Below, one piece after another: positions 23,367 to 27,827 of a DNA stretch of 64,000 nt. The DNA is taken from the sequence record SRR22947727_232. The stretch is one strand, 5' to 3'. The translations under genes were made by a program, and so were the position numbers. Every line of letters begins with the position of its first letter. Within the stretch, counting starts at the first letter, position 1. Below the pieces are notes generated by a model. The model worked only from the letters and a program-made list of their open reading frames with translations. It made no database searches and was not told where the DNA came from.

Positions 23367-23681
23367 ATGTTATTTCATTTAGATTTTCGTGTTGAATACT
23401 CAGCTGAGATGTCACAAAACGACTTATTTGATATTTGGTCAGAAGAGGCAGCTGCAGCTGTTGGCGCAAAAAAAGCTGGAGTGGTTGTAGACCTATGGAA
23501 AGCCGTCGGAGATAGACGTGTTATTGCAATTGTAAAAGTTGAGAGCATGGAAATGCTAGATCAAATTTTATTAGATTTACCTATCATGAAACGAATGGGT
23601 CAACATGTAAAAGTTAATGTTACTGCATTAAGAACATATGAAGGTTTTGCTCAAGATGTTAACGAGCGCCTAGCAAAATAA
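23367..23681 (+). CDS. Muconolactone delta-isomerase family protein (CatC-like)
   Basis: MLFH..., EA.A, LWK.VG, V.S...LD.IL.LP, V.VTAL pattern; about 100 aa. Confidence 0.7.
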   Translation: MLFHLDFRVEYSAEMSQNDLFDIWSEEAAAAVGAKKAGVVVDLWKAVGDRRVIAIVKVESMEMLDQILLDLPIMKRMGQHVKVNVTALRTYEGFAQDVNERLAK

Positions 23682-26028: not shown

Positions 26029-26085
26029 AACACTAATCCTAAAAATTAATTTATTTAAACTTCTTCGAATGAATTTTTAGGTTTT

Positions 26086-26367
26086 TTAAGGTGCTCGGGA
26101 TTGATAAGCGACAAGTCCAAGAGAAAAAATATCTCTAAGCAGGTAATTGTCGTTAATATGATTGGTTTGAGTAAACGAAAAATCAATATCGTATGAAAAA
26201 TTGGTCGTTTTAGTTGAATGATCTTGAAGTACACAGTCTTCACAATCGAAGGCACTTTCATGATGTTCATCACCATGATATTGATGCTCAATATCATGAG
26301 TGAAGCCTGTTTGTATGTTAAATAAAAGGCTAAATAGTATTAATAGATATGAAAGATTTTTTTTCAT
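26086..26367 (-). CDS. DUF2946/CruR-like leader protein: signal/TM, His-rich, CxxC, ends SRAP-stop
   Basis: THDIEHQYHGDEHHES, CEDC, terminal codons TCC CGA GCA CCT TAA; 57 nt upstream of the receptor. Confidence 0.7.
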   Translation of the reverse strand: MKKNLSYLLILFSLLFNIQTGFTHDIEHQYHGDEHHESAFDCEDCVLQDHSTKTTNFSYDIDFSFTQTNHINDNYLLRDIFSLGLVAYQSRAP

Positions 26368-26420
26368 TGAGCTTATTTTAACTTAAAATTGGTACTTTTC
26401 AAGATTGATGAACCAAATAA

Positions 26421-27827
26421 ATGTCACAATTTATAAATAAAAATAATCCACACAGCTTAAGCACCTTATTTTTTACTGAGATGTGGGAACGTTTTAGTTA
26501 CTATGGTATGCGCGCTTTATTAGTTTTGTATTTGGTTAACTCACAAAATTATAGTGAATCAGATGCGCTGCATATTTATGCAGTCTATACTGGCTTAGTT
26601 TATCTAACACCCCTTATTGGAGGCTACCTAGCCGATAGGTTTTTGGGCTCTCAAAAGGCAATTTTCATTGGGGGTTTAACCATGATGATTGGGCACTTCT
26701 TGATGGCGTTTCCCAATTTTCTTTATCTTGCAATCGGCATGTTAATTATTGGTAATGGTTATTTCAAACCCAATATAAGCTCCCTTTTAGGTCGTTTATA
26801 CAAACCAGACGATGTAAGGCGTGATAGCGGATTTAGTATATTTTATGTGGGTATAAACTTGGGTGCATTTTTAGCGCCCTTAATTGTTGGTTATGTTGGG
26901 GAAACAATCAACTGGCACTATGGTTTTGCAATTGCAGGCTTCGGTATGCTGGCAGGCCTCATTCAATTTTATATTGGCCAAAACAAAATAATAAAAGAGG
27001 ATATTTCATCACAATCAAAAAAATTAAATCCAGCAGACTGGGGAATAATTACATTGGTATCACTAATCAATCTGCCCCTGATCTTAGTAATTCTCGAATT
27101 AAATCAAATCATCAATGATTTCTTTTTTGAAATATTAGCAATCTTAATTATTTTGATTTTTTTCTACTTCATAGCCAAAAAAAAACAACTTTTAACAGTA
27201 AAAAAAGATATTAAGAGAATTGCCTACATCGGTATCCTATCAATTTTTGTCATATTTTTTTGGGTCGGTTTTGAGCAAGCAGGTGGGTCTTTAACTTTGT
27301 TTGCTAATAATTCAGTTGATAGAAATTTCCTAGGATTTGTCATTCCTGCCTCATTTTTTCAATCCATTAATCCTTTAATTATTATTCTAATTGGACCTAT
27401 GATTGCAAATTTTTGGTTAAGTGTTGATCGAAGTAAAAATAAGATTTACACCTCGCAAAAAATGGGATTAGGTTTACTTCTTCTAGCAAGTGGTTTTTTC
27501 CTTATAATGCTTGTCAATAACTCTAGCGAAACATCGATTAGTCTTTGGTGGCTAGTGGGCGTTTACTTTTTGCATACTATGGGTGAGCTATGTCTCTCCC
27601 CTATTGGGCTTTCAATGGTTTCTAAAGTATCGCCTAAAAAAATTGCCTCTCTTATGATGGGCTTTTGGTTCCTTTCGTCTGCGGTAGCTAACTTTACGGC
27701 TGGAAAATTGCCAGCAATATTAGAATCAAATAATTTGGATTTATTTACATTCCTTTCGGTCTCATCCTTATTAGCAGGTTTAGTGCTTATCTTCATATCA
27801 TCATTTATGGAAAAATTAATTAAATGA
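26421..27827 (+). CDS. POT/PTR family proton-dependent oligopeptide transporter
   Basis: EMWERFSYYGMR, GNGYFKPN, FEQAG, GELCLSPIGLS. Confidence 0.93.
   Translation: MSQFINKNNPHSLSTLFFTEMWERFSYYGMRALLVLYLVNSQNYSESDALHIYAVYTGLVYLTPLIGGYLADRFLGSQKAIFIGGLTMMIGHFLMAFPNFLYLAIGMLIIGNGYFKPNISSLLGRLYKPDDVRRDSGFSIFYVGINLGAFLAPLIVGYVGETINWHYGFAIAGFGMLAGLIQFYIGQNKIIKEDISSQSKKLNPADWGIITLVSLINLPLILVILELNQIINDFFFEILAILIILIFFYFIAKKKQLLTVKKDIKRIAYIGILSIFVIFFWVGFEQAGGSLTLFANNSVDRNFLGFVIPASFFQSINPLIIILIGPMIANFWLSVDRSKNKIYTSQKMGLGLLLLASGFFLIMLVNNSSETSISLWWLVGVYFLHTMGELCLSPIGLSMVSKVSPKKIASLMMGFWFLSSAVANFTAGKLPAILESNNLDLFTFLSVSSLLAGLVLIFISSFMEKLIK

Follow-up and report, generated by a model that had tools for sequence, protein, structure and literature searches.

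A candidate termination-arrest leader of DUF2946 ancestry upstream of a ZnuD-like receptor in marine methylotrophs

Small secreted upstream open reading frames and RAPP leaders are reported to be common in front of TonB receptors (PMC12992588). Among the closest described systems is CruR (Bp2923, DUF2946/PF11162), which precedes BfrG in Bordetella pertussis, ends in RAPP plus three residues, arrests during elongation, senses copper and acts through Rho over a spacer of 162 nt (PMC9426467). CutF, found before CutO in Rhodobacter capsulatus, is an exported metal-binding leader with a CxxxC motif, a poly-proline tail and a dependence on EF-P, in which copper induces the stall and a detoxification gene is turned on (PMC9973294, bioRxiv 10.1101/2025.02.05.636593). 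Its stalled ribosome melts a stem-loop over the next gene's Shine-Dalgarno (SD) sequence (PMC9973294).

Arrest on R-A-P with Pro in the P site is known from the RAPP peptides ApdA, ApdP and RQH (PMC7897499, PMC12992588). The Arg is irreplaceable in ApcA, ApdA and ApdP (PMC12992588), and ApdA and ApdP also need the A-site Pro, for which 19 substitutions were tested, all of them amino acids and none a stop (PMC7897499). Since these residues are indispensable in the peptides just named, the RAPP mechanism cannot simply carry over to a leader with another ending. Stalling with a stop codon in the A site has been described for uDF_NAP-stop and uA_NSP-stop, which need residues −3 and −1 (PMC10987492). 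These leaders precede secDF and secA, are reported only in Bacteroidota, one proteobacterial sequence having been discarded, and have no metal site described (PMC10987492). For LudP, a stop codon in the A site weakens arrest (10.64898/2026.10.26.761930). One published arrest-peptide screen required RAPP or RGPP and a screen of CutF-like leaders required PP (PMC9973294), so leaders ending in xAP-stop were left out by construction and would form a class hidden from screens filtered in this way.

In this context, we analyzed a leader on the minus strand of a 64,000-nt stretch of sequence record SRR22947727_232 (the window; Table 1). An earlier note had described a 93-residue exported open reading frame with a His cluster, a CEDC motif and a terminal S-R-A-P-TAA placed 57 nt before a receptor. 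The sequence confirms all of this, with export standing as a prediction. The final codons are TCC CGA GCA CCT TAA, and the spacer from the stop to the receptor ATG covers 57 nt (26029-26085). Five of the seven His residues fall within residues 24-36 (24, 28, 31, 35 and 36), and the whole leader is identical in sequence to the protein of locus L003.

Table 1. Features of the leader-receptor locus, in window coordinates
Feature	Position	Strand	Basis
Leader ORF, 93 aa, DUF2946/CruR-like, ending YQSRAP-stop	26086..26367	(-)	ORF list, homolog alignments, profile comparison
Predicted signal peptide, residues 1-23 (alternatively an uncleaved anchor)	26299..26367	(-)	Sequence pattern; helix 2-31 in model
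His cluster, residues 24-36, H24-x3-H28 invariant	26260..26298	(-)	Aligned sets of 26, 20 and 89 sequences
C42-E-D-C45, C45 invariant	26233..26244	(-)	Homolog alignments
YQSRAP-TAA, candidate termination-arrest motif (P-site Pro, A-site stop)	26086..26106	(-)	Motif conservation; arrest inferred
Anti-SD hairpin arm, +11 to +20 from first base of Pro codon	26072..26081	(-)	Folding, SD-pairing test
Hairpin 3' arm including receptor Shine-Dalgarno AGGA (26040-26037)	26037..26047	(-)	Folding, SD-pairing test
ZnuD-like TonB-dependent receptor, 683 aa	23977..26028	(-)	Family, fold and ligand alignment
Sigma-70-like promoter candidate TTGAAA-16-TAAAAT, 7 nt 5' of leader ATG	26375..26402	(-)	10/12 consensus match

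The N-terminus is basic and continues into a hydrophobic stretch, and 16 of 19 stop-type representatives carry G or S at −3 and T, A or S at −1 before the invariant His24; by the hydrophobic stretch and these small residues only, the leader is predicted to be exported. A structure model (pTM 0.36) leaves the metal site unresolved and is too weak for a fold search. The distance from CxxC to the motif is 45 residues here, matching the 45 residues between CxxC and Arg in DUF2946 (PMC9426467); it is 45-47 in leaders with the stop ending and 44 in their RGPP relatives. The distance from His to Cys varies from 8 to 43 residues among leaders. In seven cases (P0105-P0109, P0118 and L121) the His-rich segment has grown by short tandem units to as many as 17 His, with the spacing from CxxC to the end unchanged. 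C42 is lost in the close relatives L009 and L017, and the first Cys likewise in L033 (NEDC, SEDC); the leaders of all three retain RAP-stop and the hairpin, and thus offer a natural test of the metal site.

Family assignment required some care. The leader protein gave no Pfam or NCBIfam match above noise and does not reach the cut-off of the PF11162 (DUF2946) model. Among 84 homologs compared with this model, 36 match at E<=0.1 and five exceed the cut-off, all of them RAPP-type. A profile of the stop-type leaders nevertheless aligns by hhalign over its full length with P0169, a DUF2946 protein above the cut-off (probability 95, E 3e-8), and the sister-clade protein P0006 bears the UniRef label 'DUF2946 domain'. 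The end-to-end alignment, the CxxC motif (C42-E-D-C45) and the 45-residue spacing together support the DUF2946-like architecture claimed earlier. As the leader falls below the model cut-off and has RAP-stop (R/Q/N-A-P-stop across its clade) in place of a C-terminal RAPP, we call it a variant of DUF2946 rather than a member, to which it is homologous on this profile evidence.

The comparison with the known systems is mixed. As with CruR, the leader is the first gene before a TonB receptor, it shares the CxxC, the 45-residue spacer and an R-A-P near the C-terminus, its predicted signal peptide would correspond to the export signal of CruR, and the logic of an importer suggests that metal should release the stall (PMC9426467). 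It differs from CruR in its xAP-stop ending, an additional HxxxH, a ZnuD-type target, a 57-nt SD hairpin and a dispensable Arg. The SD unmasking of CutF (PMC9973294) is the readout that we propose here as well; unlike CutF, the leader has no PP and its target is an importer, so that the sign of control is probably opposite. Whereas the RAPP peptides have an invariant Arg and a Pro or Gly codon in the A site, the A-site codon here is a stop. The ending itself, x-A-P directly followed by a stop, agrees with the NAP-stop/NSP-stop pattern, and some members of the present group even read NAP-stop; the context, a TonB receptor in Methylophilaceae, differs from the secA/secDF genes of Bacteroidota. 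Because the ending derives from RAPP relatives, as set out below, the likeness to NAP-stop leaders looks convergent. A literature search, with most subscription papers outside its scope, returned no xAP-stop DUF2946 leader and no leader controlling ZnuD. Similarly, Table S1 of Roy 2022, with its 18 Methylophilaceae rows, has no entry for HTCC2181 or OM43.

A leader that stops one codon short of a known motif could simply be a truncated or mis-sequenced RAPP gene without function, all the more as every relative outside its clade reads R[AG]PP. We therefore surveyed loci anchored on the receptor, taking the 30 best among 61 genomes, 27 of which came from the same genus. Sixteen of these 27 end in YQS-x-AP-stop, where x is Arg in eight, Gln in seven and Asn in one, with 15 TAA and one TAG as stop codons in these intact loci; ten end in R[GA]PP plus three residues, and the remaining leader is frameshifted and retains the end FQSNAP-stop. 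The 120 listed of 133 protein homologs divide into 62 with an RAP end, 39 with QAP, 17 with RGPP plus three residues and two others. Metagenomic loci, searched with a pattern that left out the stop, carry the motif in 77 of 80 cases, and a stop follows the Pro directly in all 77 (75 TAA, 2 TGA). Each codon of the motif varies synonymously among these loci, which identifies the peptide as the conserved entity. Contigs of two other studies (runs X1 and X5) span the stop unchanged, the X1 piece having nine differences, none at the stop. Pro-stop is not a chance ending either, as it terminates none of the 53 long open reading frames of the window compared with 101 of the 120 listed homologs (RAP or QAP). 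Given further that the stop loci form one deep clade whose receptors are only ~50% identical, truncation or sequencing error is rejected and retains practically no probability. The comparison of RAP-stop with RAPP that the earlier note had proposed thus came out divided: the sister clade and all outgroups read R[AG]PP, while the whole clade of this locus reads xAP-stop, and the idea that a stop stands in place of the A-site Pro holds as a conserved clade trait.

RNA libraries were available as contigs only, in which DNA admixture is possible. Two RNA-library contigs from two studies (X8, 26094-26250; X11, 26096-26306) end in the Arg/Ala codons of the motif. The X8 contig is much deeper than its neighbours and has adapter at its end. 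Such ends might stem from RNA cut beside a stalled ribosome or else from PCR duplication, and we did not use them as evidence.

To place the stop form in an evolutionary frame, receptor trees were built with FastTree (55 rows) and IQ-TREE (34 rows), leaving out five duplicate loci and partial receptors. The xAP-stop loci form one clade (17 rows, support 100) that is sister to the RGPP group, and both are nested among RAPP-type Methylophilaceae; both runs warn of long branches meeting. Two named relatives, L031 (receptor identity 92%) and L033 (Methylophilales bacterium HTCC2181), put the window among the Methylophilaceae, and we take them to belong to the marine OM43 clade; the latter, a named isolate genome, has the stop form of the leader. 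With a profile of the leader family, homologs are recovered throughout the order, in 182 of 401 genomes. Outside OM43, a sample of 68 loci (28 top matches and 40 chosen further down the list) contains 61 RAPP, six RGPP, one RDPP and no stop. On this distribution the stop form is derived, the A-site Pro codon having turned into a stop once, in the ancestor of one OM43-type clade of Methylophilaceae. The 130 cluster representatives comprise 103 of the PP-type and 19 that end in [RQN]AP-stop; five of the latter are distant (P0144, P0154, P0168, P0191, P0201), and a second origin outside OM43 may have occurred.

The change of ending went along with a shift in constraint. In PP-type homologs the Arg is kept in 68 of 68 non-OM43 loci and in 101 of 103 representatives. 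The stop-clade motif is [YF]Q[SP][RQN]AP-stop, with six changes among R, Q and N at the Arg position on the tree and Gln in place of Arg in 39 of 101 stop-type homologs, so that the Arg-dependent RAP motif assumed earlier does not stand. Conversely, 18 of 19 stop-type representatives have Gln at −5, versus 11 of 101 of the PP-type. Y/F(−6), Q(−5), S(−4) and A(−2) are conserved and the 40-residue linker is variable; the Ala and Pro of xAP are fixed in the stop-type representatives, a set selected by that ending. An Arg set free and a Gln(−5) nearly fixed form the pattern that would be expected if the mechanism had changed.

What allowed the change is a separate matter. Peptide release is slower after a C-terminal Pro, an ending whose depletion is more pronounced in clades that lack RF3 (PMC7246954). 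No RF3 over the cut-off was found in five genomes of the genus from both clades, so that the Pro-to-stop change appears permitted rather than explained. Loss of EF-P as the driver was rejected, EF-P being present in three stop-clade and two RGPP-clade genomes. As to a conversion of RAPP leaders throughout the genome, a scan of G024 for the RAPP pattern gave 16 matches, only two of them in open frames and neither leader-like.

The spacer offers a readout for a stall at this site. In the window, the fold of the spacer brings CCUAAAAAUU (26081-26072) together with the SD arm (26047-26038). A stalled ribosome protects the mRNA as far as 15-17 nt, counted from the P-site codon's first base (PMC7897499). 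In 19 of 22 stop loci the GG of the SD pairs with positions +8..+18 relative to the xAP Pro, a pairing reached by <=2 of 100 spacer shuffles for each of the 19; in the remaining three its partner is the Pro codon itself. The RGPP sister clade shows the same register in 10 of 10 loci, with the last Ser codon and the stop as anti-SD; all these loci are kin and not independent samples. As the SD position itself varies from +37 to +56 across the OM43 loci and the anti-SD register stays constant, the position of the arm follows the stall site rather than the SD. Of the outgroup leaders, nine of 16 could be located (seven could not); three of the nine pass the +8..+18 test, and in the other six the SD pairs with the region of the A-site Pro codon. 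In both clades, these folding models place the base of the hairpin under the footprint that a ribosome with a P-site Pro would have. The register alone is no proof of arrest, because a normally terminating ribosome covers the same nucleotides.

When the footprint is blocked in the folding model, SD accessibility rises in 15 of 16 stop loci, reaching >=0.4 in only eight; in the window it goes from 0.25 to 0.40, a partial opening. The folding energy of the whole region is no better than that of shuffles (z 0.62), leaving the position-specific SD test as the informative one, and a DNA alignment of 13 spacers is too gappy for a covariation count. Spacers of the stop and RGPP loci are 43-58 nt long, AU-rich and folded, and the spacer here contains no intrinsic terminator and no Rfam RNA. 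Taken together with the analogy to CutF, these features make SD unmasking the likely readout rather than the Rho route of CruR. On the 5' side, five sigma-70-like sites were found where 3.7 are expected, which makes the promoter candidate weak alone; the best such site ends <=10 nt before the ATG in 21 of 25 orthologs versus 14% of shuffles. An SD before the leader ATG is absent in all 25. The lack of an SD and the closeness of the promoter suggest that the leader mRNA is probably leaderless, and the pattern is found in both clades. The start codons of the leader and of a divergent POT-family peptide transporter (26421-27827) are separated by only 53 nt, which means that the two promoters must overlap.

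The earlier note had called the receptor ZnuD-like. Its best family is NCBIfam NF038289 (ZnuD), at 302 bits against a cut-off of 950, with 59 bits for OprC, which is also below ZnuD by fold. ZnuD of Neisseria meningitidis (PDB 4RDR) is its best PDB match by sequence and by fold (TM ~0.8) at an identity of 23-24%, and the high-affinity zinc site known from that structure, D99, H100, E340 and H499 (PMC4557270), aligns with D114, H115, E313 and H469 of the receptor (offset 14). These four residues are invariant in 20 receptors. Ligands and fold thus support a zinc-type receptor, one that differs from ZnuD in lying below the family cut-off and in having no Zur box.

Across 89 homologs of the leader, H24, H28 and C45 never vary and C42 hardly does; this His2Cys2 set would suit Zn2+. 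The His cluster had been read as the source of zinc tuning in this particular copy; that part fails, since HxxxH and CxxC are common to RAPP-type relatives and any zinc tuning predates the stop.

Zur-type palindromes were searched within 900 nt upstream at <=1 mismatch, skipping four short loci. One of the forms used, found beside a Zur-like gene in L029, we take to be Zur-type. Another came from the Caulobacter Zur table (PMC4176598). Boxes precede 17 of 34 receptor orthologs that have no leader ORF and nine of 40 non-OM43 RAPP loci, and were found at <=1 mismatch in none of 27 OM43 loci; Zur repression, a trait of ZnuD, is accordingly not seen here. In the set that includes L028, L029 and L062-L080, receptor orthologs lacking a leader have a Zur-type box in most cases and those with a leader usually have none; some Methylophilus loci have both. 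Exactly one Fur-family gene is present in 40 of 42 genomes of the genus (20 of 20 of high quality), which is Fur proper in the two classified cases. A Zur-like query from Methylovorus matches only Fur loci, in three of 42 genomes, and neither a Zur nor a second Fur-family gene was found among the 42. By comparison, six of seven Methylophilaceae loci with a Zur-type box lie in genomes with a second Fur-family gene. ZnuA was found in none of five genomes searched. COG0523 proteins are markers of zinc starvation. A COG0523 gene is present in only four of the 42 genomes; it directly follows the receptor in G066 (L282) and lies ~3 kb from the leader in G003 (L281). In G018 (L278 2036-2347) an RGPP-type second leader with an SD-masking hairpin stands 22 nt before a COG0523 GTPase and DUF1826. 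Overall, we take zinc to be the most likely ligand, a metal that would release the stall.

We propose that the leader is a cis-acting termination-arrest switch of DUF2946/CruR-type origin with CutF-like SD unmasking, in which zinc probably releases the stall, an account that we hold to be moderately probable. Its ancestor would have been an RAPP/RGPP elongation-arrest leader of DUF2946 type in which Pro became a stop in one OM43-type clade. The mRNA would be made constitutively, probably leaderless and without a Zur operator. On YQSxAP, a ribosome would have Pro in its P site and the stop in its A site and would release its peptide slowly; it would then cover about +15 from the Pro codon, including the base of the hairpin, so that at low zinc the SD would be open and the receptor translated. 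Plentiful metal, most likely Zn2+, would be bound by H24/H28 and C42/C45, which would then be 48-69 residues from the P site, outside the ~30-residue tunnel and at or through the translocon. Folding or export could pull the chain, termination would be completed, the hairpin would re-form and the receptor would be turned off. Release by Zn-driven folding has a precedent in SecM fusions (PMC4571824). A bolder version, which we put forward tentatively as possible though short of probable, holds that one Pro-to-stop change, along with tunnel contacts re-tuned by the freeing of Arg and the fixing of Gln, turned an elongation arrest into a ligand-gated termination arrest. On this view, the arrest would be the only sensor of zinc for uptake across the outer membrane in marine bacteria that are streamlined and have lost their Zur.

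Several parts of this proposal could be read otherwise. One reading has no regulated arrest at all: an ordinary or generic Pro-stop pause would open the hairpin and couple the receptor to the leader, the His/Cys peptide perhaps being a separate periplasmic metal binder. Any terminating ribosome covers +10..+16, the Arg position is free to vary, Pro-stop slowing is generic (PMC7246954) and, as described below, a paralog keeps the ending in another context. Mere coupling leaves unexplained why Y/F(−6), Q(−5), S(−4) and A(−2) are conserved when the linker is not, and why the spacing from CxxC to the motif is held at 44-47 residues; as this spacing has a bearing only as long as the chain stays ribosome-bound, its conservation counts against the reading, which we consider unlikely. 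A rather unlikely variant keeps the termination stall and the hairpin and assigns the ligand to one or more other metals (Co, Ni, Cu, Cd) rather than chiefly to zinc. It draws on the copper response of both tested family members (PMC9426467, PMC9973294), on the Ni/Co genes that neighbour CutF-like leaders with His-rich sites (PMC9973294), on the distance of the receptor from the ZnuD cut-off and on the missing ZnuA; the invariant ZnuD ligands, the poorer score and fold match of OprC, the Zur-type boxes before orthologs and the COG0523 linkage all point to zinc instead.

In a secretion monitor of the SecM or uDF_NAP-stop kind, pulling by Sec and not metal would end the stall and the receptor would be tied to export capacity, as a signal-like N-terminus, a 45-residue spacer and the sec linkage of the known xAP-stop peptides (PMC10987492) might suggest. 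With H24, H28 and C45 invariant across 89 divergent homologs and downstream genes of the zinc-uptake and not the sec type, we regard this as quite improbable. Very improbable, finally, is a CruR-type readout in which the stalled ribosome would keep Rho from terminating transcription ahead of the receptor, with only an incidental part for the hairpin. This mechanism has been shown for CruR and its metal-off importer logic would fit (PMC9426467), but the spacer here is far from the 162 nt of CruR, being 43-58 nt, AU-rich and folded, and all 32 OM43 loci tested preserve the SD pairing.

Under the preferred termination-arrest switch, the results suggest that, in one branch of small marine bacteria that feed on methanol, a metal switch of a known kind has moved its ribosome stall from elongation to termination. 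If true, an arrest peptide can move from blocking peptide-bond formation to blocking release while sensor, spacer and mRNA switch are kept in register. Two questions would become testable: how the catalytic centre is inhibited by chains of the R-A-P type with a release factor as A-site substrate, and whether metals beyond copper are sensed by leaders of the DUF2946 type. The RGPP sister clade and the stop clade form a natural before/after pair. Such a switch would also explain the control of a zinc importer without Zur in an abundant coastal methylotroph.

Some further leaders and genes deserve mention. A 94-aa paralog of the leader, ~70% identical and with RAP-stop kept, occurs at nine loci (L129-L134, L138, L142 and L200), the copy in L200 being frameshifted. 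In L129 (1681-1965) it stands behind a different, Met-rich TonB receptor and ~96 nt before a Cro/HTH-like gene of 78 aa (2062-2298), whose SD can pair weakly with the Pro and stop codons; the xAP-stop ending thus persists without the receptor hairpin. In Cupriavidus and its kin (L052, L055, L058, L064, L079 and L030), RAPP leaders with His..H-x-C and no CxxC precede the same receptor family. Elsewhere in the window, a muconolactone isomerase-like gene (Pfam MIase, 23367-23681) is found in this methylotroph beside a DUF5666 protein.
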